Shown here piece after piece: positions 6,001 to 58,184 of a stretch of DNA of 64,000 nucleotides. Below the pieces are notes generated by a model. It was not told the DNA's origin. It made no database searches and was given only the letters and a program-made list of their open reading frames with translations. The DNA is from Candidatus Omnitrophota bacterium. Lineage in GTDB: Bacteria > Omnitrophota > Gorgyraeia > 2-01-FULL-45-10. The DNA is taken from contig JAPLME010000010.1 in NCBI GenBank assembly GCA_026387175.1, positions 62,096 through 126,095 on the forward strand, written 5' to 3'. The translations under genes and the position numbers were made by a program. Each line of letters begins with the position of its first letter. Position 1 is the first letter of the stretch.

Positions 6001-9000
6001 CTCACGACGGTCAGGACCATGTCGGATATAGTATATGACACACTTGGCCTGATGATTTCATATAAGGATGCGGTAACCCAGAAGTCGTATAATATTAACG
6101 GCGATCCGAATTCTGGGATTAAATTCAATACCACGGATACCGTTATAGGTTATCATACGTCAAAAGATAAAGATGACGCAGGGAATCTCACAGGATACCC
6201 TCTCGGAGGCACGGTCATATCAAAATCGGATATTCAGGGTGATGTCACAACCTGGGTATATGACGCGCGTGACCGGCTCGTGAAGATCCAGAATCCGGAC
6301 GGCAGCATAACAGAGTACGTCTACGATGGCGACACCACTCTTATCAGGAAAGAGATCTACACTCTTGCCGATGGCAAAACAAAGACCACTAAAGAATATG
6401 ACGCAGACGGCAGGCTTGTGAAAATAGCTAACCCTGACGGCACCACGATCACATGGCAGTATGACACATTGGATAGGCTGAATATAATAACTGACGCGGA
6501 TGGCATGACTTCTACTTACACCTACTATGGGAATACTTCGATAATAAACTCGATCGAGGATTGTGATAAGAATAGCAGCGTCGTTAAGAAACGGCAGGTC
6601 TACTCCTATTATGACGCTTCCAGAAATCTTGTCGCAGCTGTAAATCTGACCAGCACCTCGGCATATGAAACTTATACTATAACCGAAACTGATCTCGACC
6701 CAGGCTACCTCTCATTCGGCGGGAGCGACTATCTCCAGCTTCCTCTCATACAGTTGAAACAGAATGGCACTATTGCGATGTGGGTGAAACTGAGCAACAC
6801 AGGTGACATGGATATCTATGGCGATGATGCATCAGGAAAAGGCGGCGGCCTGCAGGTGAAGGATGGATTTTTCTGTAGTGTTGTGGGTGCCAATAGATGG
6901 TCGACCGGTGTAGCGGTGGCGGCCGATAAATGGTACTACGTTGCGCAGGTATTTACCAGTACATCGACCACGACTTATATCTACGACGCTGATGGTAATA
7001 AATTATCGGGCGCGACAAAAGCCCTCGCCATTACCCAACAAAATCCGGCTGTCTGTCAGCTCCAGGTAGGAAGATCCTCGACAGACGTTGCTTTAGGCCT
7101 TAACGGTTTCAAGGGACAGATCGATCAGCTTGCGATATATAATACGGCGCTTTCAGAACAAGAGATGGATATGGGTAGGTATTCCGAAGGATCTGCCAGG
7201 AGCATGACCCAGAAGCTTATGGCATTCTATTCGTTCAATGATGGCACCGCGACCGATCTGACCGGCAATAAATATAACGGTTCATTTATCGGAGATCCGT
7301 CTTTTGCCATGGGGGCCAGGCCTGGGGTAAAAACCAGCTTTACTGCCGATCAGTATGATAAGAATGGCACATATATAAAGTCCTATCTTCCTGTTTTTGG
7401 GAGCTGCCCCATAGCTACGGCTGCGCTTTGGCCTAGCGGATGCTGGTCTCAGTCAGGCTTGCAATCGTTTTCTGCAGGTAATGTGAACGATGGAGGCAGC
7501 AGCATCGCTTTTCATACAGACTCGGCTGCTGTTGGTTCATGGCTTACACTAGATGCAGGCTCCGCAAAAGCGTTTACCGGAGTTACGATCTGTTCCGGAC
7601 GATCGATCCAGCCGAATGTTTCCAAATGGGAAATCCAATGGTCCGATAACGCTTCATCGTGGACTACAACAGGAGATAAAATCGATCTTAGCACCAATTA
7701 CGGTGGTTGGGTGGAGGCGCGATGGGCAAGTACCGCAGGCGCCCATAGATATTGGAGATTATATAAGCTGAATGCAGCCTCCGGCGGCGATTATGTCAGA
7801 GAAGTTCAATTCTTTACAGGGACCGATAAATATGCCAATGCCAATCCTGTGTCGAACACCGCCTTTGTTGCGTCCCCTGCGCCTGTACCGCCGATAACTA
7901 CCGGGCCGATTGGACTGACAGTAACTACGCCGCAGGCGAGCACTGCTTCTTACCCGCCGCCGGTAGTTACTTCGGTGCAGGAAGATCCCAACACCCCCGG
8001 TATCCTTCTTGTCACCTGGGGAGATAAGGGCGGCACAACGCAGACGCAGCGAAAATTTGACTTATCGACAAAGGATTATGTGCTGAATCCTGATGGCACT
8101 ATCTTCGAAACATCGATAGCTTTACCTGCCTTGGCTCCGTCAGATACTCAGACCCTTAATCTCGACGGCGGCGCTTCCATAAAGTATTGGGACCAGCCGT
8201 ACGCAGACGGCGCGTTTTACGTAACCGCATACCAGAATTACGATAACAAGGGTAATGCAGTAGGCGAGGTGCAGTATATCGGCCAGGCGCGTTCTTCGTC
8301 CGGGACGCTTCCTGTCATGACAAAACTGTCCGATGGCGGTTTCGCGCTCGTAGGGTGGGATGAAGGCAAAAAGGAGCTATACTATACCGAAATTTCGCCC
8401 AAGATGAGCGTCTCTTCGAATACCTCCCGCACGGATATCAAGTATGATATCCTGGGCCGTCTCATGACATATACCGATGTATCGAGCTCCTCCGCCTCGC
8501 CTGACCTTGAGACGACGACCGATAGGTCGGAGACCAGATACAATGCCCTCGGCCAGGTCACCTCATATATCGAGACGACGGCGAGCAAGGAATATGGCAG
8601 CGCTATATATCTTGAGAATACTAAGAATATGAGCGCTATCACATACAATACCCTCGGTCAAATGACGGAATATGTGGAGAAGAGCCACGATATCAGTACC
8701 GCTCCCGCTTCGGAGAAGATGCTCCTTGACACTGAGACCACCACGACGCGGACCATAAAGACTTATGATAAACAGGGCCGGATGACGGAGTATACGGATG
8801 TGATCGCGCCGGTGAGATCGAATGATGCCGATATTTCCATGATCACTACGACTAAGACCGTAAAGGATATAACTTACGACCCTTCGATCGGAGGCATGAG
8901 CGGATATCATGAAGACTCCAATGATAAAGGCGGCATGGTGCGAATGGATGATGGGAGCGTTACGTACGCGCTTGACATTACAACGACGACAGACCGATCC

Positions 9001-12000
9001 GGCGTCATATATAATTCCCAAAACCAGATCGCCGGATATACGGATAAGATCACGACAGACGGCGATACAAAGATCGAAACTAAGACTATTTCCGGGATGA
9101 AGTATTCGCGCACCGGACGGTCGGCCGGAAGCGTTACAAAGACGCGTGAGACCGGATCCACCGTGTTGGACGGCTATACATACGCGCTTGATTCTACTAC
9201 GACTACCACCCAGACCGATCTTGTTTATAACAAACTGGGGCAGCTTACTAAATATACCAATGTGACGATCGCCGATGCCGCCCCTGAGCGTGCCACTACA
9301 CTATTCATGAAGAATATCAAGTATGACGTGACGGGCCGCATTATAGACTATGACCAGAGTACAGTTGAACGGGCCTCTAATACATATGACCTTAACGGCG
9401 ACGGGGTGCTTGATCAAGGCGATCTTGATGCCCTGACAGAGTATATGGTCAATAAGGCGAAGGCAGATCCGGGGTATGGATATTGCCGCATCGATATCAA
9501 TGGCGATAACAAGATCGATGCAATTGATATCGATATTATCAAGAGTGCGTTGAAACCCTTTAGCGAGGGCGGTTTTGATATGGATGGGAACGGCTATATC
9601 GACGATATGGATAAACAGATATTCAGTCAAAATCTGATGGCGATCATCTCCGAGCACGCTAATATTCAGGGTCCCATTTATGACCAAACCACTCTCGCTC
9701 GTGTTCCCGAAGATACTACGGGGAGGCAGTTCGTCTGTGATGGCTATCTTACCGGAACTAATTATAAGGTCTATGTCGATGGAATAGAGCAGGCCCAAAC
9801 CGGTGTATATACGGTGAGTGAAGCAGATGAAAAAACTACCATCACCTTTAATGCACGAATAAATACCAGCAGTACAGTAGCTCTTAGTCGGCTCATCCAT
9901 GATGCGCAGCCCGGATGGGATAAGCGCTTTGACTTGAATGGCGATAATAAGATCGACCTCTCCGACCTCGAAGAGGCGTCAAAGAGGATACTGGAAATTA
10001 AAACACTCCTTATAGAGAAGTCCAAGGATATAGATTACCTTGCTCTATCTACGAGCGGTAAATATGACCTGAGTTATTCCGGAGGCGGGTACGACCTTAA
10101 TAACGATGGTTATATAAGCGCTGATGATATTAAGACATTCTTCGCGACCGTTACTGTTGATGGCCAACAGATGCCGCTCTACCAGGCATGGCTGCAGGAT
10201 ATGATGGGGAGCGTTGTTCTCAAAAATCCCTCCGGGGGTACGACGGGTAATCAATTCGTCACGAACGGCTCTCTTTCAGGAAAGCTTTGCACTGTCTATG
10301 TCAACGGGGTTGCTCAGGTGCTGAATTCCATCGCATCTAACGGATATACAGTGCTTGAGACAGGGACAGGAAATAATATCGTCAGCACAATTACCTTAAA
10401 AGCAACTATAACTGATCCAAATGCGAAGGTAGAGCTCTCCGTGCGTAAGCTTGAGAATAGCGTTACCCTTGCCAGCGTTTCCGGAGATACCACCGGAAAG
10501 CAGTTTACCCTAGACGGCTCTCTTGCGGGAAGGCTTTACACGGTCTTTGTCGATGGGACAGCTCAGGTTCTGAACAGCGGATATACGGTGAGCGAAATGA
10601 CGGACAGCACTACACATGCTGTTACCACCACGATCACCTTCACTACTGCGATACCCATCGGCAAAACAGTGAAGCTCTCCCAATGGGTGACCACGCCTGA
10701 CAATATCGCGACGGCTAACCTGAAGTCAAATCTCCTACCGCTCTACGTTAACACGGTAAAGGATGGCAAGACGGATGAATTAATGGTTGAAAACCCGTAC
10801 CTTGAAAGCCTTGCTGCCCAGATTAATAAAGTCATAGCGCAGTGTTTTAACATTAAAGCGACAGCACAAGGCACTCCTGGCACGTTTAACTTCTCCAGTT
10901 ACCTGTATTCATTAGCTAATGCTAAATATAACATCACGCTTGATAAGGTAATAGGTACCGGCGATGGATCGACCACGAGATTTGAGACCGGCCTTACGCT
11001 CGCAGATAAGAGCTATCAGATTTTTGTTAATGGTCAACTCAGTAAGTCGACCAGCTACACTGTGGATAGCGCTGGCGCTGTAACTTTCACTGCGGCTCCC
11101 GCCTCCGGCCAGGAGGTCAAGATATCGATTACACAGGTAAGGGAGAATAAAGATATAGGCCCCGGTAATGGGTCGACCAAGAAGTTTAATATCGGCTATC
11201 CGATCGTAGGCAAGACGGTCAATGTCTATGTGGATAGCGTGGTGAACGGCGTGGTAGTGAGCAGTGCGCTAATGGCTAACAACACCTATGACGTTGACCC
11301 GATTTTAGGTACCATTACTTTCAAAACAGGTACTCCGGCACCGCCAGCCAATACGAAAGTCAGGATAAAAGTGGACAATTATGACTGTTCCGTTGATGAC
11401 GCCGCCAAGACCATTACCTTTAACAATAATATTTCTACGTCTGGCATGGATGTCATGATCAAGATCAATAGCTCCGTAGGCACACTTTCCGCCCTGGATA
11501 TCATCCAGACTTTTGACAGCAATGGCAATAAAGTCCTCGATATAGCCGATGTTAATAAGCTATGGAACGACTGGAAGAAAGGAAATTTCGTATTACCTGG
11601 AGACCCTACTGATACTACGGGTGCGGGATTTAGTGGTATTTACGCCCTGGAGCTGGCAAAGTTCCTCGGCGGCGGGCAAGCTAATGGCGCTATCTCCGGG
11701 GTGCTCGATACATCCTACAGCTTTAAACAGGGAACCGCCGACTTTATGGCATTGCTCTCTCTGAGTTCTGGCTTATGGGCAGCGACGGACTATTTAGAAT
11801 TATTGAGCAGGTTCAAAGGCTTCACCAATATTGCCGTGTATGACAGTAATTCCGATAAACAGATCAGCGCAGTAAGGGATACTATTACGGGAAAAACAGC
11901 TGATGAGACCGCGTTTAGTAATCTTATACAGGATCTTCTGTATAAGAGCGGAGTAATAAAGAAAAGTAGCCTCGCCAGCGATGACCCGCTTCTTAATCTT

Positions 12001-15000
12001 AATGTCAATAATGACGACGTGATCAGTAAAGCCGACTGGGATGTTTTTGGCACCCTTATCGGCAAGTACAATAAGACCACGGACGGCCAGATCACTGCGG
12101 AAGACGCAACGGCTACTCTTATTTCTGTGGGAAGCGACGGCAAGAGTTTTGCGCTGCCCTCGAGTTACATGACGACATATTCACTGAAAGGGAAAACCTA
12201 TAAAGTCTTCAGCACTATAGGCGGCACATCGACAGAGATAAAATCAGGTTATACGCTTGACAGCACAGGCAGGATCATAACATTTGCTACAGCGCCTGGC
12301 GCAGGAACAACCATCACGATAGATTTCGATGATAAAGCGACTATCACTACCCTTCTTAGCAATTATGGAGCGGTAATTAAACCGAGTGATATAACCACAT
12401 ACCAGGACGCGATAAAGGTGGCGCTGCAAAATAGAGGATCTTTGGCGAGCGGTCAGACCGGATATCTGCTCGCTTACGATAGAAATAATGACGGCGTGAT
12501 CGATAAGTACGATATCAGCGCGAATGACAAGATCATTGATCAGCTTCTCACGTGGAATGGCGGCGCTGTTACAAACGATAAATTTGTTACCTGGGGACCG
12601 GTTACATCATCATCCGGCGTCTTCTCACAGCTTCATTGTAAAGGGTATGATATCGGCGCTGACGGCGTCATATTTATTGATCCAAAGAATTCATTGGACC
12701 CATCGGATCCATCTAGATATTACAGCATACCTGGCACTGACTATGAATTTACCTATGCCGATGATATCGCCTGGGCAAAGATCACTCAGGCCCATTTCGG
12801 AGACGCGACCCAGGCCGATAGGATCGAGAAATATATATATCTGAGTGAAATACCCGACTCATTTATCAGGAATAATCCCGCGTTTGTCAATCTGACCGAT
12901 ATAAACCAGCTTAATGTTTACCAGTACGGGACAAGCACCACAAAGATCATCACCCAGAAGGACATAGATCTTCTGAAGAAGGACTCATCAAAGAAGGCGT
13001 GGGGTGAAGCGCTTGAGAATTATTTAAACGGAGATACGAAAATAGGGGTTGGCAAGGATGGGAATTGTGTATTTGAATTCGATAAATCTTTGCTTGGATA
13101 CGCTCCTGATGGGAATAATCCTTATGAGATATACGTAAACGATACCAAAGTCACAAATTATACCGCAACCGTAGGCACCAGCACTGTAACCATAACCTTC
13201 ACCGCCGCACCGGCAAGCGATGCGGCAGTGAAGGTGAGGGTGCCCGGTACGGGACGCTTCCATCTGGGGATCATCCTGGAGGACGACGCCCAGTCGATGC
13301 GGTTCCTGGGCAAGGATTACATTACGTTGGGGTATCCGACACCATCGACCGGTTTCGGTCTAAATGAAATTGATAAATCGAGCGCCTGCACGATCGAAAC
13401 GTGGGTCGAATTCACGAATCTTAATACGGCCGGCGATCAGGTCATATTGAGCCAGGCAGATAACGGGAGTGGCCGTGCCATATGGCTAGGGTACAACAAT
13501 AATATAACTACGCCGTCATCCAGCAAGCTGAAGTTCTCTTTCCATGGTGTAACCGCTGAGCTTGATATGAAATTTATCCAGGGCGATTGGCATCATATTG
13601 CCGCGCAATATAACCCGAATGTCAATAGGGCCAGCGGCGAGGCCGGCGTGATCACGTTCTTTATAGATGGTGAGGTCTATGCGCCAAGCCGCTACCAAGT
13701 TGGCTCCCTGGTCCAATATGGAGGTTATCTCAATAAGAATATAATAGTGGGCGCCGATATCGTAGGCGGAGTGGCGACGAACGGATTTAAAGGGTCTATA
13801 GATGAGCTCGCCGTATACTCTTCAGGAGCGCTCACTGCCGCGGACATAAAGAGCCATATGGATAATAAGCGCAAGACGGATCCTTCAACAGGTATTGTCT
13901 CAGTTACGGATACGAGTATGCTGGCATACTATTCTTTCGATGACGGCTCTGTTCGTGACCAGACAGGGCATAGGAATGACGGGTCAATCGCCGTAGGTTC
14001 GACCACGGCCGGCGGGTTTGAGACAGATGTCTTCTGCACGCTGAACCAGAAGAAAGACAGGCTCCTGTTCGACAAAGATGGTGACGGTATTATAGCTATC
14101 TATAAGACATACGCCGGACCGACCGATACGGTCGGCACGTTCCTCGGCGCCCTCGATCTTGTCCCATCGTATGCGAAACTCATCGCTCCGAACTCCGGCG
14201 CTACTTTCATGGTGAGCCAAAAGATGCGGGATATCAATGGCAGATTAATCGACAATGTTCGCTGGGGTTCGGTCGCGCATTTAGACCTTAATGCGGATGG
14301 CTGCGTCTCTATCGATGATACAAAATTCAGAGGCGTTATGGAGAGCTCTGTAGCCAACTATGTCACGTTCACTTATCCCAGCGGCTCAGATATTTTCAGC
14401 GAGCTTTATAAGCATTATGACGCGAATGGCGACGGAATTCTGAGCGCTGTAGATGATGAAGCGGCTTTCTGGTCGAAGGCAAACCTTAACGATGTTAATT
14501 GGGGCGATCCGGAGTACCGCTGGCAAAGCGAGGATGTCGTTTCCCAGGCTGATATAAATACACTGAAAACATATATCTCTACTTATGGCAAGGTGACAAA
14601 GACTGGCGGGTCCTACCGGCTCAAGTATGATATTAATAAGGATGGTATCGTGGATGGTAATGACCTGACCAAGCTCGAGGAGCTTATCTCTACTTACTTT
14701 GATTACCAGACAGATACCGGCAGACAAAATATGAAATATAACGATCTCGGCCAGCTCATCGGTTACGAGGAAACCTCTACCTCCAGCACCGATTCTATCA
14801 CAACGACCACAAAGATGAAAGAGATGAAATATGATGTAAAGGGCAGGATGCTCACTTATATTGATGAGTCACATGAGGCTCTTAGTAAGATTACAGGCAC
14901 ATATACTGATGCCAATGACGTCAAGGTAACATACACAATAGGTAATCTGGCTTCATTGGATGAGTTTAAAAATGTTGTCGATGAAAATGGTATTACAAAT

Positions 15001-18000
15001 AGAGTAGAAGACAAAGACGGCATTCTGGATGAATCTAATGCCGCCGCTATTACAGATACCAATACACAGAGCCTCCTGCGCCGCGCGCTTGCGGAGTACG
15101 GGGTTAATGGCGCGATCGCGCTTATTGACATAACCAAGACCACGAAACGCCTATCCGCCTCATTCAACAATCTGGGCCAGATCGGCGCTTATACCGATGA
15201 AAGCACAGGTACCGATATAACTGGCTCGACCAGAACAGCGATTTTCAGCGGCATCACTTACAACATTAGCGGCCAGATGGAAGGATATAATAATATCTCG
15301 CAGGAAATCGTGAAGGATGGGGACGCGATAGTATACACGACAAATTCCGAGACTGATCGCAGAGATATTAACTATAACCTGAAGGGCCAGGTCAAGGGTT
15401 ATACAGACTACTCATATTCCAAAGATGAGACCTATATACCCAATCTTATAACCGTGAATACTATGTCCGATATCCTCTACGATTCACACGGCATGGTCCT
15501 GAGCTCCAAATCGCTGACTAATGAAGCCTCGACCATGGAATGGATCGACCCGACCGGTAGCAATTGGATTACAACGGGTGCGGATGACCTTAAGATCGAA
15601 AAGTGGTATCTCTCTGCGGACGTTAAAGCCTCATCCGCGTTCACCATTGCTGCTACCGTCACCGATAATAATGGTATCGAATATAAGATCTGTCTGGTGA
15701 GCGGCTACAACGTCGGGGATCCGAAGAAGATATATGATTATAACTCCACCGAAAAAACTATTACATACTACCTTGGCGATGTTGCGAATGGAGAATGGCA
15801 TAACATTAACGTAAAAGAGAGCGATTCACTTAGTTCCGGCCTTAAGTGGCTTATGAAGCAAACGGTCAATGTCGATTTCGGCCATCTGAAGAATATCAAG
15901 ATAAAAGGGTCCGATGTGACGATAAGGAACCTCAGCCTTGCCGAGAATCAAGAGCTTGCCAATATAGAGACGGTTTCGCTCGCTACTTCAGAGTGGATAG
16001 CGCCCGATAACACCACGAAGGCCAATTTAAAGGATACGGTACCTGCCGACAAACCGGCGCTTATTGGCTCAGGATCCGGTACACTTTCGAAGACCACATC
16101 TATCGAAAAGTCCGATGTAAAATATGATCCATTAAACGGTAATACCCTGTCGTATTCCGAAGAGTCGCGCTCCAGCGCAAGTCCCGATCTCAAGACTGTA
16201 AAGACCCTCGCGAACATGGCCTACAACGGCCTCGGCCAGGCGCTCGGATATGATGAGTCGAATCAGGATATAGAGAATGCCCTTGTAATCACGAGCCCCG
16301 CAGGTTACAGCGCCTCGATCAGGAGTATCGAGCCCGGCACCGATTGGGGCTATGGGCCGCGCATAGAGGGTAAGTCATTCCTGAGCTTTGATGTAAAAGC
16401 GACTAACGATTTTAGTTTTTCAGCCTGGGTACATGTCAATAACGGTGTCAATGATTTCACAAGCTGGTATTTTGTCACCTTTAAATCAGGCGATGGCGCC
16501 AATGAGTCCGGGGGCGGCGCCGACCGGAATGTCCTTATCTACCTCGGCTCGAACGCGACCGATGGCGGATGGCAGAGTTACACTTTCGACTTGAAGGATA
16601 TCTGCTCCAGATATATATCGTTATCACCGAAATATTTGAGCGTGGGAGAATTCCATATTACAGCTTCGAATGTTTCGATGAAGAATCTTAAGGTCTCGCA
16701 ATACGAAGATGGGAAGGACCCTACGACAGTTTCACTCGATCCGAAGCTCTGGACAAAGCCGGGCGCAATCTCGTTAGATAACGGCCCCGCGGCGGATACT
16801 AACATCTACCAGGTTCAAAAAGTGCTGACCGCGGTAAGCGAACTTTGTTTCCAGATAAAGCCGGGAGCCGGCGATTATGGCGTGAAAGCCCGTCTTGGAG
16901 TCAAAGATAGCGAAGGCGTAGAGAGTATTTATCTTATAGACTTCGTATCGGATCTCAATAGCGTAAAAGGAACTCTCACTCTTGTGCCCAATGCGGAGAG
17001 CGATAGTGATGTTAAATATACCCTTAGATATAATATGGGGGATCTTACCAATGAGCCGCAGGAAAGCGGTTACTACACTATCAGCGTTGATTTGCAGAAT
17101 ATTCTCAATAACGCCGCCGCGCTGACAGACAGTAGCGTCCAGCTCTTGTCCTTAAATTCCGTTGTATCGCATGGGGACGTTGATTTTATTAATAAGACAT
17201 ACACTTCCGATGAGCTTACAAAGCCTTCCGGCGATGAGGGCGATGCCTCCATGTTTACCAATCCTGCCGCTATTGACCCCGATGCTCAGGGCAGTTGGAT
17301 CAATAGGTACCTGTATTGGTCCGGCAACAGTACTTGGCCGAGCGGCTATGGCGATGAGATGTGGCATAAGCAGTGGCTAAAGGTTTCGTATATACCTAAA
17401 GCCTCTGCGGCAATGACGCTCTATGTAAAAGTTGTCGATAAAGCCGGTAATTCCTATAACCTTACCTATAATAAGCTCGAGACGGCTTCCGGAACGCCGG
17501 AGGTAACGAAGATGTGGAATCTCGCCGAAGACCTGGCGAAGCAATATAAGAACGCCGCGGCGTTCGACCACGTCAAGTATATCTCCCTCGAATGCGCCGA
17601 CGGGACCTTCACCAGCATAAAACTATCGGACAGTTTCAAGGAATGGGATGATCCCACGCGTATTATCGACATTCCTACTCAGAAGGAAGCATGGGTTCTG
17701 AATCCGTTCAGGGACGATACCCAGGATTACACCATAACCACAGACACAACCACAAACAGAACATACTATAAGGTCCGCTCGGCCGCCTTGAGCGATACAG
17801 AACTTTTTATGAACCTCAGAGACGCTGCTGATACATCGGATATCTATAATGATATCCTTAAGAGCAAGAACAAGCTGACATTCTATCTCAGAAATCTTGA
17901 AAGCGGCAAAGATTATATATTTGCGGATGGCGAACCGTTCATTTGCTCGCTCAATGTGCAGGATAAGGACGGCGTTAACCATTCGATCGTAGTCAATTCG

Positions 18001-21000
18001 TCCGAGCTTAAGCCAGGCTCAAAGCCGTGGCTTGCAGTCGATACCTCCGTTGCCGGTGCGACAAAGGTCACTATAGATCTTAAAGCCGCTTCCATTGCCG
18101 ATGGTATGGATCCTGAAAAATTCGATGGGTTGAGGCAGATCTCTCTAAGAGGCGGATACTATGATATTAGCAACATCGGGCTTTGGGAGAATGACGAGAC
18201 AGCGAATACCTCAGTTTTGCCCAGTCTATTAAACCGCCAGGACTGGTCAGTCTCCTTCATTATGCCCCGTGGCACAAATATAAGTTCGAATGCCGAGCTT
18301 GCCTTTAATTCCGGCTCCCGCTTAAAAGGTGAGGCCATTCGCCTTGTCGATGGCATTAGTACTGACTCGGGCGACCTCGGGCTGACTGATAGAAATCATA
18401 TAACCTTCAAACTTAAATCGATCGGCGCGACCACGCTCGGGTCGGACGGAAGGCCATATGCCCTTGATGAGAACTTTGCTATGAATGTCAAGGTTATGGG
18501 CACCGATGGCAAGACCTATGACATTAAGATCTCTCTCTTGGATAGAGAGAAGAAGCTGGATTGGACGATCATCGATCGTGATCTGGCAAAGCTCTTTAAT
18601 GATAACCTGCCAACCGATCCGTTAACCGGGCTGAAGGATGATGTGATGATAGACCATATCATGAACTTCTCGGTCGAAGGAGTTCAGTTCAGTATAAAGG
18701 ACATACGGTTTACCTCGAACGCGCAGACGGTAGTCGCCTTTGACGCGACGCGCAATCCCCAAACAATGTTTAAGGATGATGTGGGTGTATTAAGGAAGGA
18801 CAATGTAAAGGTAAAGGTTGAGTCTGTAGACCAGGACGGACACATTATCAAAGACCAGAACGGGAGAGCTATTCTGAAGCCGGAGACCTACACGGTCACA
18901 TTCCGAACCGGCGGTGTGCGCGGCACCGTTCTTGCGCCCGACTCGAATAAGGATATAGTCTGTTACCTTGGCACGGCTAATTCGTTATCCTCCGACCCTC
19001 AACACTATGAATTCAGCCTTGATTGGATATTGCGGAATGCTCTTGATAATAGCAAGCATCTCCCCGGTGAGCACATAGCCTTTGAAATAGTTGATCCTGA
19101 TATTAAAAATCCAGTTTCTCTTATTGGCGGCATTGACATTATAACGCTGGCACCATCATCCAACTCTGTATTCTCGCTCGTGAAGAAACCCGAGATCGAG
19201 GAAGCCTACCGTAAATACACTATTAACGACTGGGCGCAGTATGGGATACTTGCCTCTCCCTCGGGTTCGGGGCTTTTCAGCAGCGATTTTATGAACGCAC
19301 TCCAGGAGTCGAAGGTTATACAGCCTACCAAGGATTCGACCACGACCCGATCCGATATGGTTTACAATGATTTCGGCCAGGTAGTCTCTTACACGGATAC
19401 CAGCTTAAGCGCCGACTCCCCCGATCTTGAGAGCGTCTTGACCGTTACGGATGTAACCTATGACGAACATAACCAGATGATAAACCTCGTCCAAAATACG
19501 GAGGATTATTCAAAGAACATCAGGCAGTCGGTTATCGCCAAGGACAACGGGACGAACGTCCTTCACCTGAAGGCATCGTCCCAGTATGACTATACTACGA
19601 CCTTCTACGCTGAAGATACGAACGATATCCTTACCAATGGTAAGCATATCAAGTTCGAAGTTAATCAGGATGAGTATGGAGAGCTTTCGTCATTCGAATT
19701 AGACCTAGCTTTTGGCTCGGTTCCCATCCCTTCTGAGATTTCTCTGGTGAATTCTAAACTGCATGTGGTGTATAAAATAGATAAGACAGGCACCGCCGTG
19801 GCATCGTTATCAGGTGACCACAATACCCTCTATCTGCCATTTACGATGTCACAGAAGGCTGGGACCAATACATATGTCTTCGATAGAAGTATCTACACTG
19901 ATATAAAGGACGCTTTCGACAAATGTATAAAGGGCGCAGACGGCAAATCTTACAACGACTATCGAACCGAACTTACGGCGCTTGCCGCCATTCCGAACCG
20001 GAACCCGACCCAGCAAGCTAGATATGATCTTCTGACTGCGAAAATTGGCTCCCTGGCCGGGCTTGATGATAGTAACTATAGCATTACTGCGGGATCGGTT
20101 TTCTGTAAGTTTACGGCCAATACCAAGGTTATTTCCTCCTACTCAAGTGTCGACAACGTTGTAAGTTTTAATGTGAACCAGAATAGCCTGGGGACGCTTT
20201 CGTCATTTGACCAAATCGTTAATGTTTATCTTGTACAGTCCTCTAGCCATTATGAATATGACGCATATGAAGGCTATGTATATGATTCTTCTCTCGAACT
20301 ATATATGTCTGATGGAACGCAATGGTATCGATGGTATCCCCCCGCGCCAGAAGAGGGACAACCCTACACTTATTATTCTCGTGACTACGGTTTACATACG
20401 AGGAGAGAAGTATCTGACACAACTAATGTGCCGGCGCCTGGCCTGACAACCACTGCTCCTCACGTTATTTATGAGGCGGGCCGAACCGTAAACTCAATAT
20501 CATCCGATGGTAAGACTATCTATCTACCGCTTGTATTGACGTTGAATCCAGCCACCAGTATGTATGTATTTAACAAGAATGTTATAACTGATGTACAAAA
20601 CGCGCTCAATAATCCCCTCGCGGGATATACGTGTAGCATAGCAAGCGACCCCACATTCAATTTCACATCCGCTGAAGTTCCCATAACCTATTCCGATGGC
20701 AGAAACGTCAGATTCGATTTTGATCAGGATGCCTATGGAACTCTCTCATCATTCGAGATAAATATGGCCTTTGCGCTTACGCAGGGCCAGAGGATGGATG
20801 GCCTGGGCTTGACAAGCCCTAATCTCCGCGTCGTCTATAGGAAGGGCGATACTATGGCATCACTATCCTCAGATGGTACGACCCTCTATCTGCCGCTCAG
20901 ACTGACACAAGTAGGGACGACCAATACATATACCTTCGATACCAGTGTCCACGAGGATGTAAAGGCCGCGATCAACGGGTTATGCGGCTTATATATCACA

Positions 21001-24000: not shown

Positions 24001-27000
24001 AGCAAGTATAATATTGTCGATGATTCCCTCCTTACGGATATGGACCAGAAATATCTTAAATATTACGAAGAGTTCCTTAATGCCCCGAAACAGAATTTCC
24101 TTAATATAAACAGCCTTTCGGAGGCCCAGGTGAACGCCCTGATCAATGATGTCGGAGTGGCTGAAACTATAAATCTTGCGAGAGACGGTACCGTGACGCA
24201 TGCCGATGCCGTCACGCCGGGTTCGACATATCTTATCAGCGGGTGGACAGGGGGAAATGTCACAGTTCCGGAAAGTATGATCGTTCAGTGGCGGGAAGAG
24301 TCGTGGTCGAATCCTCGATTGGGATGGCAACCCGAAGACCTGGATTATAATAAAGACGGTGTTATCAATGGCTCGGATGGTACCAGTTTTGCGGAGATTG
24401 GCACTATGGTTGCTGCCTTCCAAACCCTCTTCGGGTCCGGGGCAAAGCTAACCCCGGAGCTGAGTGCGGCATATCACGCCCTTGATACTAATGGGGATAA
24501 CAAGATCGATATTCTGGACAAAAAGCCTGCTTCGAATCCTGCTAATACCGCGTTCAATGCTTATATTGATGCCCTTTTGAAAGCGGACGGGGCGGTTTCG
24601 CAGGGAGATGCCGGGAGAAAATTCCTCTCCTATGTTAATCTAGTCACGGCGGCCAATATAACTAAGTGTCAAGACCGCATCGCCCAAGTAAACAGAGATT
24701 TAGAGGCAGCCGGGTCGATCAACAGGCTTACGCCCCTTACACCCAACGATATCCTTAGCGGGATAATGGCGAGCGGCCAGAGTTATCTCGACAATCTTGC
24801 GCTCGTCACGAAGGATAGCATAGATACATCTATGCGTACAATCTCCGCGGCCAAAACCATCGTTACGACACTTAATATGAGCGCGGATGATGTCCTTAAA
24901 AATATATTAACGGACGGCGGGAAGTTCCTCGGGAACCTCGCGCTTGCCACGCCGGCTAATATAAATAAACTCCAAGACCGCATCGGCACTGCAAACGGTG
25001 TATTAGATGCGACCAATCAAATCAAGGCTAATCTAGTTATGTCTGTGAAAGATATCTTTAATAAGATATTGACGGATGGCAAGCCGTTCCTCGATAACAT
25101 AGACCTTGTCATAGCAACTAATATAACTGCGTTTCAAGGCCTCATTACCACGATTAATAATGCATTGCCAACAGGGACAGATAAACTTACGACCCCCCGG
25201 AGCGCGAACCAGGTCTTAAACGATATACTAACCGGCGGTAAGCAGTTCATTGACAATATCAATATCACGGATGAGAGTAAGAAACTCTTTACGGCAGCCC
25301 GAATAACCGCAGCTCAAGTTTGCATTGCCAAAGCAAATGAGGGATTGGCGGCGACTGACCAGCAGCTTACGCCTCTTAAGCCGGATGATGTCCTTAACGG
25401 TATAATATCGTACGGTAAGAAGTTCATCGATAATATAGGTCTCGTCACAGCCGGCAATATAACCACGCCTCAAAACTGTATCAGGGCGGCTAATTTGACA
25501 TTAACCGCCAAGATTCAGGTCCTGACAGCGGATCAGATTTATAGCAGGATAATATCGGGCGGCCAATGGTTCCTGAGCAACATTGCGCTCGTAACGGCGG
25601 ACAATATAACAGCGGCGCAAAACACCATTACCAAAGCTAATTTAGGCCTTACACCCCCGACCGTAAGCCAGCTCTTTGACGGGATAATAGCGAGCGGTGA
25701 GCAGGGCTATGAATACGATGTCGATGGTAACGGTCAGGTCAACCTTCAGGACAAGCACACTGTCGAATATGACGATATTGTGAAGAGGATTAAAAATGGT
25801 AATGCTTCCTCAGGTGATTATGCAAGACAAGCTGTCCTTGATAGCATATTCAATGACTATATTATCGCCAAAGGCTCTGTTTCCCGCGGGGAAAAGTCTG
25901 ATGTAAGGCTGAGTGACGCTACGGTAAATTCTGCCCTGGCTGGAGACAGTAAATTCTTATATTCCCGCTCTACGGCGCCGGTATTTAAAGTCGAAGATAC
26001 CGCAAAAGATAAGAAGATCTACTTTAAGATAATCAACGGCCCCGTTATAAAAGAGACGGATCCCGCAATCACATTTAATATCTCAAAAGACGGCGCGGTA
26101 AATGACTTTATGATAGATGAAACGGATGGATGGACATACGTGAGAGAGATCTCGTCCGTAGCTGACCGGGTGCTCATCGATTATAGTAAGGGCGAGAGAG
26201 TACTTATCGACGATGTAGAACAAAAACCCGAAACATATAGAATTGATACCGATGAAACTACAGGAGCCAAGACTATTGTATTCCTGAATTCACCGGTACC
26301 CGAGGGCAAGTTGGTAACGATAAAAGAGATAAAGACCGAAGCGTCTCCATATGTAAACAGTGATACATCCGGCGTAGATCCGGTGACCAAATGCGTTTTT
26401 GACGGGCAGCTCATACCTCTATCCGGTCTTGCTAATGAATATGAGATAAAGGTGGACGGCGTGGTTCGCCCGCATTTTTCCACGACAGACCCGAAATACG
26501 AGAACTACACGGTCACATGGGACGCAAAGACCGGGTATACGACCGTTGTTTTAAAGATGATGGACAGGTCGATCACTCCGACGTATACCACTGACGGTAA
26601 TAATCCTTGGTGGTATGGGTTCCTGGGCAAGCAACTTACGCTCGGCAGAACTATAGGCAGCGCGACTATAGACTGTGCTTATGATCCTCTCAACACCTAC
26701 GTGATATATCAGGACGGCAAAGAGCTAAAGGCCTCGGACTATACCGCCTCATCCGCGCAAGGCGGGAAGACGTTGATAGTATTTACCAATTCTTTACCAG
26801 GCACCGCGATCTTAAAGGCAAAATCCCTGGAAGGTAATCCTGTCATTGTAGCAACATATGCCCGCGTTACTACACCAATTAGTCGTACTTCAACCGATAC
26901 CAATAGGACAAGATATGCTATGAATGGATTCCTCCGCTCCTACGATCCTCTCGTACCCACAGGCGAACCTGCGGGTGAGCTGAAATTGTCGAGCCTGTGG

Positions 27001-30000
27001 CGCCAAGGCATCTTTTACCTTGAGAATGGGTATAATGCAAATCTCGATAAGAATTCTGACGGGTTCATAGAGGTCGCGCCATATCTGACAACGACCGATA
27101 CGACGTCGAAGCTGAGCGGTCTCCTCGACCAATGCAATATCACCCTGGCCCAAGGGTCGAATCCTACGAAATTCTACGCTGACCGGAACAGTGACGGCTA
27201 TATAGATCAGGCAGATGTTAACGATCTGATCCAATCTAGTGATGAGAACCTGAAAGCATGGGGTAATGCTATTCTAGGTATCCTCAATAAGAATAGCGAC
27301 GTTAACAGTATAATTGACGACAATGAGAGACTATGGATTGCGGATCCGGCTCCCAGTGAGGCCGCTCAAAAGGACGCCGCTATGATCCGCAGCTATCTCC
27401 TTACGCCGATGCATATACCCGGCACGATCATTGTGGATAAGGGGTTTGATTATATCGACCAGATGGATATTAATATACTTAAAGACACTTCGACAGAAGA
27501 TGTTGACTGTGTGACGAAAAAAGAATGGGCTAAGACTATCAAAAATTACCTTGCCAATAATAATAAGCGCGATCAGGGTATTCTCTATTGGCAGAGTGAT
27601 TATTATTCCAGCCATATTCTTCCGGATATGGATGGTAACGGTGTTGTAAATAATGCCGATATAACGGTCGTTGTGAAAGATGCCCAAGGCCACGAGACAC
27701 GGGAAAATAAGTCCGACATTTTGAAGGGATGGCTGAACGGCGATGTGCCCCAGGGAGATTACGAGCATATCATAATGCCCGGCGATGCAGGATGGGACTC
27801 TAGGTACGATCTCAATAATGACGGCATATTAAGCGGAGCAGACCTGGAAGTACTCGCAAGAAATCTAACCCTGCCCCAGGATATTGTCACTGAAGCAAAT
27901 AAGACATTGAGTGACGACAACAAGCTTTCGGATCTGACCACGTCCCAGGTTCTTAACGGCATAAAAGCGAATGGCCAGGGCTATTTCACCAATGTCAGGC
28001 TCGTCACGGCGGCTAATATCACCACGGTTCAAGCCCACCTCAATGAGGTGAACAATTTATTGGCGGATGGTAGCAAGTTTACGCGCGCTACTGAAAACCA
28101 GGTCATGACCGCAAATCAGGTCCTCGATCAGATAATATCAGGCGGCCAGAAATTCCTCGACAATATCCTGCTTGTCACAAAGGATAGTATAGAGAGTTCT
28201 CAAGCGCATCTCAATGATGTGAACAGTCAATTGAAGGGGGTTAAGTTTACGCTCACCGAGGGCCAGGTCATGACCGCGGATCAGGTCCTTAACGGTACAA
28301 TAATGAACGGCCAGACGTTCCTGAGCAATATTATGCTTGTCACAAAGGATCGTATAGTCGATTATCAGACTTCGACCAAGGCGATAAACGATGGGTTGGA
28401 TTCAGGCAATCAACTTACGTCCTTTACCCCCGACGAGATCCTTAGCGGGATAGTAGCAAACGGGCTGGTGTATTTCACCAATATCAATCTCGTCACAGTA
28501 GATAATATAACCACGTCTCAGGCCCATCTCAATGAGGTGAACAATTCATTGCCGAACGGTAACAAGTTTACACGCGCTACTGAAGACCAGGTCATGACCG
28601 CGGACCAGGTTCGTGAAGGTATAATAATGGACGGCCAGAAGTTCCTCGATAACATCAAAGATCTCGTCACGAAGGAGAATATAACCAAGTCTCAAAACTA
28701 CATCGTGGAAGCAAACAAGACATTATCGGATGGTAACCAGCTTACGCCACTGACCGCGGACCAGGTCCTTAACGGTATAATAGGGGGCGGCCAGAAGTTC
28801 CTGGACAACATCAGTTCCACACAGGCTGTTTTGGATGAATTTGTTCCTCACGGATTTGTCGCTCGTTTTAACGAATACATGATAAATAACGCGGCGCTTG
28901 TCGATGATCCGAAAGTGAGCACTGATGCTTATAGCGTATTGCTTGCCACTCATCCCGGAATTACAGATATCAATCTCGACCATAAAATAGACCATTTTGA
29001 TCTCGATACCTATTCTCTTAATTCGGAGACGCGTACGGAACGTGATCATGTGACCTATGAGACTTCGGGCAGGCTCTTTGGATACCGCGATACTGTTACA
29101 TCCCCTTCAACCCCATACCAGGTGACTGAGAGCATCGTATCGGACATCTATTATAACGAGAAGGGCCAGATGGAAGGATATAATCAACTGGATAATAGTT
29201 CGACCTTCCTCGAGTTGAACGGCAAAGACAGCGATTATGCCATTACGACCGAGAATGGGACTATGCCGGATCTCAATATAAGGAATGGGTACCTGAATTT
29301 TGATTTCAACGCCGCCACAGGAAAGTCATTCGAAGTGGGGGTGAGTATAGAAGTTGATAAATATATAGGGACATCCTTGACTCAGGAAGAGTACACTATC
29401 CATTTCGCTCTTGGTGAAAATACCGGCGAGATTAGCTACGATTCCAATACGCCATTCGAGGCTACCTATAATCTCGGCGCCGAATCAGATCTCTGCGACC
29501 GTAAATGGCATTCGGCCCTTCCCTTAAATCTGAGCCTTTATAGGATAATTGACCAGATAGCCAGTAAAAATGGCAGTCCTGCCGGCGCCCGCTATAAGCT
29601 TAACCATGTAAAAGCCATAACGCTTAAAGGCGAAGATGTCCAATTTAAAAATATATCGCTTTCGGCGGATAGCCTTCTCACCGATATAAAACCGGTTTCA
29701 GTCAAAAACTCGCAATGGAATAATGTTATTAAGACTGATCTCGGTACCTTCAATGCGCCCTACGAGAGCGAGCTTACCATAAAGGATATCAAGCGTAGAA
29801 ACTTCAAATATAATGAGCTGATGCAGTCCACCGGCTACCAGGATACGGTCTGGAGTTCCGATAACCCGGCTATCGAGACCGTAAGGACCATTTCCGCCAA
29901 CGTCTATAATGGGCTCGGCCAGATCGTAAGCTCTGACGAGAAGACCGAGACGCGCCAGAACTCGCTTACGGTGAGCTCTCCCGGCACATCGCTTTACGGT

Positions 30001-33000: not shown

Positions 33001-36000
33001 AAATTCTTCTCCAGCCTACGTTTGAGTATCGGATCGGCGAATCAGAATGACGTTATGGCGCTTCTTACAAAGATCTCGAATAATATCAATGACGGTGATT
33101 CCAAAGCGCTTTTAGCTAAAATCGTTGGCGGAGCTGCGGCCAGTTCTATGATAGCGGCTCTCCAGGCATACGGCGGCCTGTTCGCAAGCCTTTTTGGAGC
33201 CGGTGATTTTACCGGAAAACTGGATGAATCGAAAGGTTATTTCGTATATGCCGGCAACATGCTTGTGGGCTCGGCGACCGACAAGACCTCGTATAACGTC
33301 ACTAAAGGGTCGTCTGCGGTCTCATCCGCCAGTTTCAGCCAGACGTTGATTACGAACGTTGACGAATATGGTAACGCTACCGGAAGCTCTACCGTGAGCG
33401 AAAAAGACGGTGTCATTACCAGTACCAAATGGAAGGGCGGCGATTACGATCAAAATGGCCATACCGGCTGGTATTCGACCGTCTCTTCACGCACGGATGG
33501 CACAACGACGATAACTTCAAAGAGCTCGGTAACTAACGCCAAGTATAACAACTACGGCCAGATAACGGGGTGGACCGACACCTCCTGGTCGTCTGCCACG
33601 CCCAACATAACCACGCTTACGATATATTCGAACGTCTCATACAACACTCTCGGCAAGATCGCAGGCTATACGCTTAATATCCATGATTTTGGCCAAGCGT
33701 ATGATTTTAGCCGCCTCCAGGTCTGGTCCAACATGACCTGGTCTGGCGATTTTATGACGAGCGCTACGTACACCAATATGCTGATAGACCCATCCGTTAC
33801 CGCGGGCTCCATCGAGACTATCAGTATCAACAGCCGTAAGGACGGCACAAATACGATCACCGACAGCGTATCTAACAAAAATGGCGTTCGGACTAATACG
33901 ACGAGCACCGCCAATGCCCTTGGCCTTACGATACACTCCACCAGCACCGTTTATGATGCCAATGTAAATGACCCGAGCAAGCGGACCTCGACAAACGAGA
34001 CTTATGAGATAAAATACAGCGCCTCGGGCAGTAAGATAAGCTCGCTTTCCGCGTCTGATGGCAATATTTCGCGTAGTTATTATAACGGCTACGGTAACAC
34101 ATACTATACCCATACCGACTACGCGGACGGCGGTAAATCCGATACCAGCTATTTGTATGGCAGTACCGGGCATCTCCTCTCCTCCAGCAGTTCTTATGTC
34201 AGCGCGCTACATACCGAGGACAAGGTTGAGAGTATAGACCAGGGCACGATGACATCGCATACCACGTACCGGATATACATTATCTCCGTTACGACCTACA
34301 ATGCCGCAGGCGATGCCGTTAATACCACCAGTGATTATCGTACAGAAGGCAGAACCGACATTGTTGCGATACAGGAAGGCGTTGAAGGGCACCACGATAG
34401 GCAAGACTATTGGCAGGGGCGTACTCATATCATTATAGATAACAATTATGATATCCACTGGAGTTCTACGACGCGTCAGGGAACGCAATGGACACAGACC
34501 CAGCGAACGGTAAGCGATGGCCATGGCAATGAGCTATCGAAGACGGAACTTAATACTGTGGAGAACTCTCTCTATAAGGATACCTCGACGTCCAGCTTCA
34601 TTACAGGGTATTACACGGTCTGGACGCAGACGGTCACCAGGAGCGGTAACGGTTGCAGCGGCTCCAGGCAGACGCAGACGACCTTTACCACATACATTCC
34701 GAATGCAACCGGAACAGGATTTGTAAAGGACGAGAGCAGATCATGGACACACACAACAATCGAGAAGACCGGATGGATGAACTCAGGCTGGTTCTCGATA
34801 CTCAAGATATTCGTCTCAGTCTTGGCGGCCATAAGCGGGCAGTGGTATCTGATCCTGGCAAGCGCCGCTCTCTCCGCTTTTCAGGGCATTGCGACGGGCA
34901 ACTGGATGGCGGTCGCGATGGCGATCGTGGGAGCCGTTGTAGCGATATATTTCCCCAACGGTATAGACTGGCTTCAGAATGGTAATCTCGGAATCAATGC
35001 AGTTTTTAACGGCCTCATCAGCCTGGGTATCGGAGCGGCCGCGTATTTAATCGGCTATCTCCTTAAAGATGTTTGCCCGGTGCTCGGCGCGTTATTACAA
35101 GGTGCAGGCCTTTCCATCGCGATGAGCGGCATCCAGCAGTTAGCGCGAGGTATTTGGGGTTCCTTTAATCAGACGCCAACTGGAAGTGCTGGTACTCAGA
35201 CCACTGAGAAACCGGACTTTTCATGGGCAAAAGTGTTCAGTCCGAGTAATGCCTCAAACATAGCATCAGCTGTAGTATCGGCCGGCGTGCAGATAATGGG
35301 GTTGGTAAGCGAGAGGAATAATTGGAGCCCATTCGTTAAATTCCTTGCATCTGTGGGAGGGGCCATTATTGGCGGCATCGTGGCGTGTGCCATAGGAAGT
35401 AATTTCATAAACGCTAGCCAATCAGTCCTTTCAAGTTTGGCCAATAGCTTCTTTAGCCTGGTTGGCACTTATGTCATACAGAAAATTTCTGAGAACATCG
35501 CGAAACGTTATACGGAGAAGAGAGAGGCGATAAATAAGAAGTATGATGTGCTGTTAGCCCGCCTGAAGAATGAATATAATGACGGTAAAGGCTCGATGTC
35601 ACAAGGGCAGTATGATTCGCAGAGCCAGGCCCTTGAAAATTCGCGCGGGCTGGAGCTGCAAGCCCTGGGAGACCAGCAAAATGTCGAAATGATGGGTATA
35701 AGCACCACTATAGGCGCGATCGGAGATATGTTTGCGGCAGTTATCGGGGCTATCGCCTCTAAGTATTTGATGCCGTTGATCGAGAATATATATGTAGCCG
35801 TTAAATATGACCGCAACCTGGATCAGGTAAATTTTCTACGGATAGCATTACCGAAGACATTCGAAGCTATGAAGACATCCGCGATGGCAGGAAAGCTCTT
35901 CCAGGGTAATATCGACCAATATATTCAGTTTGCTGCAAAGAATTATGGCGCAGATACGATTGAGAGCTGGGGCATTAATTTCGAGTCGTTGGGAGTAGGG

Positions 36001-56244: not shown

Positions 56245-56269
56245 CGCCGTAGTTTGATTCGCGCATCTC

Positions 56270-56298
56270 TTGCAATACATGCCACCCTACGGTATAAT
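56270..56298 (+). promoter_or_regulatory. Sigma70-type promoter (TTGCAA, 17-nt spacer, TATAAT) for lgt; predicted start site falls on the lgt ATG, giving a leaderless mRNA
   Basis: TTGCAA at 56270-56275, a 17-nt spacer, then TATAAT at 56293-56298. The lgt ATG at 56305 lies about 7 nt downstream with no Shine-Dalgarno sequence. Confidence 0.5.
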
Positions 56299-56304
56299 TA
56301 CTCC

Positions 56305-57081
56305 ATGCATCCATTCCTATTCCAAGGCACGCCTTACGAGACGCCGAGCTGGGATGTTATTTTATTTGCCGGATTTTTTATCGCCTTGACAATAGCGCTT
56401 ATTGTAAAACCCAAAGATTTTCCGGTTACGCGCCGCGGTATCATAGCTTTCACCTTCATTACCTTATTTACCGGTTCACTCGGGGCCAAGCTTCTCTATA
56501 TCTTCCTTCACCGCGAAGAGCTATTCGGCGCTATGCACTTGTCATTCAGTGACGCCTTCCTATCATCCGGATATGCCTTTTTAGGTACCCTTGTCGCTGA
56601 GCTCATTACGATGTGGGCATTTACAAAGATCAGATTAAAACCGATCAGTTTTCTTGTCTTTGCGGACTTCTTAATGCCATTTCTTCTGTTACAGCAGGCG
56701 TTTACCCGCATTGGCTGTTTTTTAAACGGCTGTTGTTATGGCCCGGTAACAAACCTGCCATGGGGATGCGTTTTTGTGGATGAAACGGTCAAACGTCATC
56801 CCACGCAGATATATTTCGCCATAGCCCTCGTGATAATATTCTTTTATACGAGACATCTCTATAAAATGAAGCTGCCCAAAGGCATAGTTTTCTTCACAAC
56901 GCTCTTTACCTACGGCCTTTTCAGGTGTATACTTGAGTCATGGAGGGTCGATAGTCCTCATATCCTGGGGCCTGTCACGCTCGCGCAGGTCACGACATTT
57001 ACGCTCGCCGTTATCAGCGGCGCCTGTTTATATGCGATCATGGTACGAAACGGTCTTATAAAATCAAGGAGGAAGGGATGA
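56305..57081 (+). CDS. lgt: Prolipoprotein diacylglyceryl transferase (Lgt), 258 aa from ATG 56305. The ORF track extends it to a TTG at 56254.
   Basis: Polytopic membrane protein. It has the RIGCFLNGCCYG...WG motif (compare E. coli RLGNFINGELWGR) and HPTQIYFAIALVIIF (compare E. coli HPSQLYE). The N-terminal W..GFF region aligns with the E. coli WYGLMYLVGF region. Confidence 0.8.
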   Translation: MHPFLFQGTPYETPSWDVILFAGFFIALTIALIVKPKDFPVTRRGIIAFTFITLFTGSLGAKLLYIFLHREELFGAMHLSFSDAFLSSGYAFLGTLVAELITMWAFTKIRLKPISFLVFADFLMPFLLLQQAFTRIGCFLNGCCYGPVTNLPWGCVFVDETVKRHPTQIYFAIALVIIFFYTRHLYKMKLPKGIVFFTTLFTYGLFRCILESWRVDSPHILGPVTLAQVTTFTLAVISGACLYAIMVRNGLIKSRRKG

Positions 57082-57725: not shown

Positions 57726-57743
57726 AAAGTAATAGTCTCCATC

Positions 57744-57769
57744 GTAGCCGACATTTAAATGTCGGCTAC
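57744..57769 (+). terminator. Perfect 11-bp stem with 4-nt loop, a plus-strand terminator candidate (no T-run)
   Basis: GTAGCCGACAT-TTAA-ATGTCGGCTAC sits 19 nt after the stop of the 57078-57725 CDS. Confidence 0.45.
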
Positions 57770-57810
57770 GACATTGATGGTACACTTCATTAAGAATAGA
57801 TAATAACTCG

Positions 57811-57844: not shown

Positions 57845-57861
57845 TTCATCCTAAGTCATTG

Positions 57862-58062: not shown

Positions 58063-58184
58063 TATTCACTACCTCCTTCCGGTGGAATTAATAGTAAATA
58101 ATGGCATTATATGAGGCCCTATTTACTACCGGGCGCATTTTACCATTTTCCTTAGATGCCGGCCAGCACTTTTTTAAAAAACTC

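Follow-up and report, generated by a model that had tools for sequence, protein, structure and literature searches.

Why do short tyrosine-containing motifs recur, often in pairs, between the large domains of one giant bacterial protein? The question is raised by a 64,000-nucleotide (nt) stretch of a Candidatus Omnitrophota contig (JAPLME010000010.1, positions 62,096 to 126,095 of the forward strand; assembly GCA_026387175.1), hereafter the window. It carries one uninterrupted giant open reading frame (ORF) at nt 13–56244 on the + strand, encoding 18,743 amino acids (aa). A first-pass annotation, made from the sequence, had listed ten sites with motifs of the YNxLGQ and YDxxGRM type, often accompanied by a Ser-rich stretch, and read them as hairpin pairs stapling unrelated modules together. 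We come to a different reading, which we hold to be probable: each motif pair consists of successive copies of a YD/Rhs hairpin variant with a long period (about 32 residues), which is specific to a small family of unannotated proteins of very large size from Omnitrophota and Elusimicrobiota-labelled metagenome-assembled genomes, and would serve as structural connector or scaffold.

The motif is a repeat of about 32 residues

Each of the ten sites gives the translation described when the single ORF is read in frame 1. The excess over shuffled sequence, which the annotation had proposed as a check, was estimated by regular expressions using 200 shuffles of the giant protein. YNxLGQ occurs 17 times against an expectation of 0.0, [YF][NDE]xx[GNDM][QRK][LMIVA] 59 times against 2.3 and [YF][NDE]xxG[QRK][LMIVA]xx[YWF] 25 times against 0.0. 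A hidden Markov model (HMM) of the unit, seeded with 25 strict matches and iterated on the giant protein at i-E ≤ 0.01, converged on 51 units. At relaxed thresholds 56 units were obtained, compared to 0–1 in five local shuffles (60-residue windows). The motif is thus far beyond chance by both methods, and the global and local shuffles together rule out a chance or compositional artefact.

The preferred spacing between units is 30–33 aa, with a mode at 32 aa. From 105 units of exactly 32-aa spacing, taken from the window and from relatives, we derived the consensus YNxLGQLxGYTETxTSSAxPDLTTTxxRSNIT, in which the first Y is conserved at 96%, N/D at 96%, G at 88%, Q/R at 92%, the second Y at 81% and P at 60%. 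The Ser-rich 'SSSASPDLET' turn of the first reading corresponds to the consensus of the stretch lying between two YD cores (S 47%, S 45%, P 60%). As a strict regular expression recovered this stretch in too few units (about 5%), it was assessed by position-specific composition.

The map of the units is given below (coordinates in the window, strand, description). Units in the C, D and later sites were located by the unit HMM.

1726–6102, +: N-terminal long-period YD array (aa ~572–2030), about 40 units 30–38 aa apart, with a higher-order repeat
6280–6582, +: canonical YD/RHS repeats of ~21-aa period (aa 2090–2190), PF05593 and TIGR01643
8416–9375, +: block B, including site 1; 10 long hairpins, 20 strands in the AlphaFold2 model (aa 2802–3121)
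14722–14880, +: C1 (site 2), two hairpins, units at aa 4904 and 4935, also modelled by AlphaFold2
14881–15132, +: ~85-aa non-YD insert at a distal-turn position (see below), missing from ortholog P0001, helical in a low-confidence model
15148–15522, +: C2 (site 3), four hairpins, units at aa 5046, 5078, 5116 and 5153
15523–16107, +: ~200-aa beta-rich module between C2 and C3, kept in P0001 and in the paralogous block D
16123–16278, +: C3 (site 4), two hairpins, units at aa 5373 and 5400
19348–19482, +: site 5, pair at aa 6446/6478, 65% identity in P0129
23614–23778, +: site 6, pair at aa 7868/7899, then a dockerin-like Ca loop; kept in P0084
29041–29205, +: D1 (site 7), pair at aa 9677/9709
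29794–29952, +: D2 (site 8), pair at aa 9928/9961, 79% identity in P0097 and 46% in P0053
31441–31512, +: site 9, single unit at aa 10477, kept in P0097 and P0053
33529–33696, +: site 10, pair at aa 11173/11205, the last YD unit of the protein

This map corrects the first reading on three points. The extent given for the motif (nt 8400–33680) leaves out 35 of the 51 units, which sit upstream of nt 8400. Site 1, taken for an isolated pair, is the start of the 10-hairpin block B, and site 9 is a single unit and not a pair. All 56 units of the relaxed search precede aa 11,300, the last run ending by aa 11,228, and no degenerate YD copies were found at these thresholds in the large gaps after aa 3122.

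Most of the upstream units belong to an almost unbroken run of about 40 (aa 683–2030, roughly 1,400 aa). Within it, at nt 2878–4146, a higher-order repeat is 77% identical in DNA over 450–805 bp, which points to a relatively recent tandem expansion. The dispersed sites differ in this respect: no DNA-level similarity links any two of them. They are therefore not scars of recent recombination between YD-coding DNA, a possibility that can be set aside, but old and maintained elements.

The units are related to YD/RHS repeats

The assignment of the motif as YD-type is upheld by curated models. Over the whole protein, the Pfam model PF05593 (RHS_repeat) reaches 44.5 bits for a cut-off of 22, and TIGR01643 (YD_repeat_2x) reaches 33.2 bits for a cut-off of 15.8. 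The top matches of both lie at aa 2129–2170, in four to five textbook 21-residue YD repeats (KEYDADGRLVKIANPDGTTITWQYDTLDRLNIITDADG) that adjoin long-period units in the giant protein. At site 1, TIGR01643 is also above its cut-off (23.6 bits) and PF05593 falls just under (21.8 bits).

A profile built from 15 pairs (alignment A2) was searched against all Protein Data Bank (PDB) sequences, up to E=1. Five chains were retrieved. The Rhs effector Tse15 (E=0.004, KIQYNELGQMISYTDCSGKSST) was the sole near-significant match; Tse5, at E=0.94, was no better than three non-Rhs chains at E 0.9–1. With a whole-block profile (alignment A3), searching the PDB sequences gave only non-significant Tse15 matches.

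The units share with the described YD/RHS repeats (Rhs effectors Tse5 and Tse15, TcdB2-TccC3, YenB/YenC2, teneurins) the core Y-(D/N)-x-x-G-(R/Q)-hydrophobic. As in Rhs cores, Tyr is placed at the change from strand to sharp turn in the modelled units. They depart from the canonical repeat in their period, which is about 32 aa instead of about 20–21 aa: in the window, as in 150 relatives, units are most often 32 aa apart and hardly any are 21 aa apart. The distal turn is also different, being Ser-rich (S-S-A-x-P-D-L) here and of the short D-x-x-G type in canonical YD/RHS repeats. Finally, unlike in those systems, the units are spread across 11,000 residues as short runs interspersed with large modules.

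Predicted structure of the units

To look at the fold, aa 2780–3190 were modelled by AlphaFold2 with a 28-row multiple sequence alignment of relatives (alignment A3). The model has a predicted local distance difference test (pLDDT) score of 82.4 and a predicted template modelling score (pTM) of 0.72, with most of the YD part above a pLDDT of 90. In this model 20 consecutive strands of 10–18 residues each, spanning aa 2802–3121 (block B), make up a single antiparallel up-and-down meander, and each conserved Tyr is the final residue of a strand that precedes a 5-residue turn. The tight turns are DILGR, NALGQ, NTLGQ, DKQGR, NSQNQ, NKLGQ and DVTGR, and those of the opposite edge are Ser-rich or equivalent (SS/SA/SP, YGSAI, APASEK, DAAPE). 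The model thus agrees with the proposal that each unit is a beta-hairpin, and places the Ser-rich stretch in the opposite turn.

A Foldseek search with the block B model returned RHS shells as its top six matches (TcdB2-TccC3, YenB/YenC2, YenB/RHS2; probability 0.66–0.99), with marginal E-values and low TM-scores. Taken together, the fold searches describe a strongly curved sheet which resembles barrels and Rhs shells about equally. The likeness to large up-and-down beta-barrels (porins, TonB-dependent receptors, VDAC/Tom40) is geometric only: structure-based identity is only 4–8%, no motif is common to both, and block B is Thr/Ser/Asp-rich and lies within a soluble multidomain region, not in a membrane protein. 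As modelled, block B appears to fold into a YD-type sheet of strong curvature whose strands are unusually long (10–18 residues compared to about 10 in the canonical repeat; in teneurin, 78 strands are found in about 800 residues). Successive hairpins building one continuous curved up-and-down antiparallel sheet are likewise seen in YD/RHS proteins.

A second region, aa 4835–5445 (block C), was modelled with a 4-row alignment. Its overall pLDDT is 48; the YD stretches are still predicted as long hairpins, at pLDDT 63–79. A fold search with this model gave nothing significant.

From these features we propose the following arrangement. A strand would end in the conserved Tyr, and (N/D)-x-x-G-(Q/R) would make the tight 5-residue turn; the second Tyr, along with an acidic residue, would lie on the return strand; the opposite, or 'distal', turn would be formed by the Ser/Thr-rich S-S-A-x-P-D-L and lead to the following unit through its T-T-x-R strand. 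Adjacent units would hydrogen-bond side by side into one curved antiparallel sheet, with the YD turns along one edge and the Ser-rich turns along the other. Long runs (aa ~683–2030 and 2802–3121) would thus be large sheets, and the N-terminal array at aa 683–2030, judging from its sequence, probably forms one of about 80 strands (about 40 units). Short runs of one to four hairpins would be pieces of a like sheet, bordering modules that would be inserted as excursions at distal turns.

A small family shares the long period

An exhaustive profile search over 1.84 billion proteins retrieved 283 at E ≤ 0.001, 147 of them at 1e-10. The top matches are 1.6–8 kaa in length, with up to 72 matched stretches. 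Twenty members were looked up; among these, all the named ones are 'hypothetical protein', from Omnitrophota metagenome-assembled genomes (MAGs; six), Elusimicrobiota-labelled MAGs (two) or an unclassified 'bacterium' (three). Word-indexed homolog searches (block C; alignment) found only two Omnitrophica fragments.

The relatives have the same layout as the giant protein. The spacing of their units has its main peak at 32 aa and another at 64–70 aa, with almost nothing at 21 aa, and long runs are likewise found together with many singles and pairs hundreds of residues apart. In hits of at least 3000 aa the commonest runs are singles (143) and pairs (50).

Units at module borders and insertion at a distal turn

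According to the first-pass annotation the pairs punctuate unrelated modules. Short runs do abut large modules; the modules, however, are not all unrelated, some of them belonging to paralogous cassettes. Residues 5104–5429 and 9663–9990 are YD-module-YD cassettes (in blocks C and D, respectively) of like layout, with 28% identity over 353 aa, and block B is paralogous to C1+C2.

One distal turn is found in three states. In ortholog P0001, which is 46% identical to block C, the two sides are directly joined; in block B four extra hairpins are present; in block C the position is occupied by the ~85-aa non-YD insert. The insertion has therefore divided a single sheet, whose two halves are sites 2 and 3, and distal turns are evidently permissive insertion points. 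A precedent for domain insertion into a YD sheet is the NHL propeller within the YD domain of YenB.

Orthologous fragments P0124, P0129, P0084, P0097, P0053 and P0052 share the same large modules. In all but P0124 from this set, YD units were located at the same module borders, within −5 to +8 aa. In the four for which identities were compared, the units are conserved equally to or above their flanks:

P0097: YD identity 77–79%, flanking modules 62–68%
P0129: YD identity 65%, flanking modules 47–65%
P0084: YD identity 45%, flanking modules 31–35%
P0053, pair at aa 9923–9985: YD identity 46%, following module 35%
P0053, single unit at aa 10471–10505: YD identity 37%, flanking modules 35–42%

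Connector, staple, relic or cocoon

On the reading we favour, the hairpins would be rigid beta-sheet connectors or a scaffold by which adhesive and enzymatic modules are held and spaced within the first 11,000 residues, the presumably extracellular part of a membrane-anchored giant protein. Several observations weigh against it. Outside site 1, the ten sites score below the curated YD thresholds, with half-repeat matches of 13–15 bits or none, and PF05593 is matched by 3 of 28 long-period blocks of the family; these blocks are mostly missed because their period is 32 aa and not ~21 aa. Homology to YD repeats accordingly draws on weak sequence signals together with structure. The only model that contains modules is of low confidence (pLDDT 48), its modules being uninterpretable, and insertion at a distal turn is demonstrated at just one site.

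The first-pass annotation saw in each pair an inter-domain staple or hinge, that is, an autonomous four-stranded beta element between unrelated domains and outside any larger YD sheet. Part of this stands, since the pairs do lie at module borders and both their positions and their sequences are kept in orthologs. The pairs at aa 6446, 7868 and 11173 are moreover isolated from other units by 700–1,800 residues, with no degenerate copies in between, and singles and pairs are the commonest runs in relatives. What does not stand is that they are a separate element: the same repeat unit builds long continuous sheets elsewhere in the giant protein, and sites 2 and 3 are demonstrably one sheet divided by an insert. 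A lone four-stranded sheet with strands of 11–17 residues and two exposed edges would also be unlikely to be stable without partners. We regard autonomous staples as unlikely, although they are the most serious competitor to the connector reading. Short runs could instead be functionless relics of an ancestral YD array, split by module insertion or cassette shuffling and tolerated as junction scars. That blocks C and D, and likewise B and C, are paralogous would fit such a history, as would the variable indel at one distal turn and the degenerate second units of many pairs. Relics would hardly be expected, however, to be conserved equally to or above the flanking modules in orthologs down to about 35% identity, nor to keep the same borders, and the DNA holds no repeat signal of recent recombination; the four ortholog comparisons already point toward stronger conservation of the hairpins. 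This makes functionless relics improbable.

The YD units could also form a classical closed cocoon of the Rhs/Tc type, enclosing and delivering a toxin domain. YD repeats are present, and the top Foldseek matches are Tc and Yen BC shells. Near aa 15,050 there is also a weak match to the pre-toxin family PT-TG (E=0.008, sub-threshold), the only Pfam match over window 34798–56244. Such a cocoon is characterized by an Rhs core with a DPxGL autocleavage motif, and by an N-terminal PVxxxxGE, and closes as a shell around a C-terminal toxin. No Rhs-associated core family was detected by Pfam in the whole protein or by NCBIfam in aa 1–9500, and neither DPxG[LWIV] nor P.[ST]..DP.G occurs in the 18,743 aa. 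In addition, the units are scattered over 11,000 residues and broken by modules of up to 1,800 aa, their strands are longer and their period is 32 aa, not 21 aa, and the C-terminal 7,000 residues come after transmembrane (TM) segments, not after a shell. The absence of both Rhs core and DPxGL motif from these scans leads us to discard the toxin cocoon, whose probability we consider very slight.

A bolder reading, which we find rather doubtful, does not take the dispersed hairpins for independent connectors. The roughly 20 of them at aa 4,900–11,230 would join block B, and perhaps the N-terminal array, in one continuous spiral YD sheet or tube, from which modules of 200–1,800 aa would be looped out at the distal Ser-rich turns. 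Each module would then have its N- and C-termini drawn together; for aa 3125–4889 the two dockerin halves at either end could do this. If this were true, an ectodomain of 11,000 residues would be organised by a discontinuous YD 'spine'. Unannotated regions of giant proteins in Omnitrophota could then be parsed by a general rule, with hairpin positions guiding how the proteins are cut into foldable units.

The giant ORF and its genomic setting

Other features of the window are as follows.

13–56244, +: giant ORF, 18,743 aa, which may extend upstream of the window
9385–9552, +: dockerin type I (aa 3125–3180, Pfam), immediately downstream of block B
14536–14679, +: dockerin type I (aa 4842–4889, Pfam), immediately upstream of YD run C1
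19588–22113: repeat family (aa 6526–7367), no Pfam match
24613–25704 and 27811–28854: repeat family (aa 8201–8564 and 9267–9614), no Pfam match
37765–38907: repeat family (aa 12585–12965), no Pfam match
34798–35409, +: first TM-like hydrophobic cluster (aa 11596–11799; hydropathy and composition scan), at the end of the YD-bearing, Thr/Tyr-rich part
23422–24423, 35943–37472, 37986–39182, 42118–42762 and 53781–54848, −: antisense ORFs
56254–63513: downstream block, beginning 10 nt past the giant ORF with lgt (prolipoprotein diacylglyceryl transferase)

The ATG at nt 13 is preceded in frame by the codons ATA GAA TCC ACT (nt 1–12). As these contain no stop, the giant gene may begin outside the window and encode more than 18,743 aa. 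The predicted N-terminus (window 1–15) lacks a signal peptide. The five antisense ORFs (214–509 aa), each starting with TTG and wholly within the giant ORF, can most likely be dismissed as spurious shadows cast by the long reading frame.

Downstream of lgt, the block at 56254–63513 contains a 215-aa ORF without Pfam match, two paralogous patatin-like phospholipases and a Mrp/Nuo-type antiporter subunit. The patatin pair was found again on short Logan contigs of other samples. The closest relatives of the antiporter subunit (68–80% identity) all come from Candidatus Omnitrophota MAGs, which identifies the window as a segment of an Omnitrophota chromosome that harbours a 'giant gene' like those reported by West-Roberts et al. 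2023 (bioRxiv 10.1101/2023.11.21.568195).

Downstream of the canonical YD repeats lie a Laminin_G_3 domain (aa 2235–2384) and an F5/8 type C discoidin domain (aa 2486–2594). With these repeats they make up the sole well-annotated stretch of the N-terminal 11,000 residues, dockerins aside (window 6280–7794). The two Dockerin_1 domains each adjoin a YD run and enclose a module of ~1,660 aa, the ends of which they might bring together, an arrangement reminiscent of the 'split dockerin flanking a CBM-like barrel' of West-Roberts et al. Six dockerin-like Ca loops are present in the giant protein, three of them within about 60 aa of a YD run, too few for such loops to be taken as a regular partner of the YD pairs. 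The three further internal repeat families are distinct from the YD units.

In a rough hydropathy scan no TM-like cluster was seen before aa ~11,600; isolated hydrophobic segments at aa 355–375 and 11032–11050 also exceed the threshold. Composition changes near aa 12,000, where Tyr drops from 5% to 0.3–3%. Beyond aa ~11,600 (window 34798–56244), Tyr and Thr are lower and Ala is higher, with further TM-like segments at aa 12833, 15010–15325, 17099–17139 and 18222–18254. GC skew reaches about 0.2 at nt 44–50 kb.

Comparison with described Omnitrophota giant proteins

The lack of a TM-like cluster before aa ~11,600, together with the switch in composition, is consistent with the 'Dockerin-type' giant proteins of Omnitrophota. 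These were reported to carry dockerin, EF-hand and discoidin domains, to lack TM segments in their N-terminal part and to have such segments close to the C-terminus (10.1101/2023.11.21.568195). The protein described here is likewise from Omnitrophota and has two Dockerin_1 domains, an F5_F8_type_C domain, weak EF-hand matches (Pfam) and a TM-like cluster starting at aa ~11,600, which leaves the C-terminal ~40% behind it. It differs from the class in two respects. Members have numerous thrombospondin type 3 (TSP3) repeats, for which no Pfam match at E ≤ 0.01 was found in the giant protein, and are of at least 30,000 aa, compared to 18,743 aa within the window.

The same study described antiparallel beta-helix 'tubules' of ~1,500 aa and remarked on their resemblance to RHS proteins (10.1101/2023.11.21.568195). 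The roughly 1,400-aa N-terminal hairpin run agrees with these in size. The published tubules have regularly interspersed exterior helices; the block B model has none. That study gives no sequence motif, does not name the repeats 'YD' and does not mention short hairpin runs at module borders. In the literature searched, which included it and a 2026 survey of Omnitrophota long proteins, we found no YD motif, 32-residue period or border hairpin pairs named for these proteins. The view that this organisation had not been described therefore holds for the literature searched, but has to be tempered by the published structural remark on RHS-like beta-helix tubules. YD repeats as a class, the hairpins they form and the insertion of domains into their sheets were known before, and no new principle is involved.

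Omnitrophota giant proteins are mostly unannotated, 'dark' sequence. A searchable 32-residue repeat, available as a consensus and an HMM, accounts for several thousand residues of the one studied here and flags the edges of modules in some 280 related representative proteins. The 'RHS-like beta-helix' regions known from published structure prediction may now be tied to a recognisable sequence family. If the connector reading is right, YD hairpins with longer strands would also serve outside toxin cocoons, as a scaffold that tolerates insertions.

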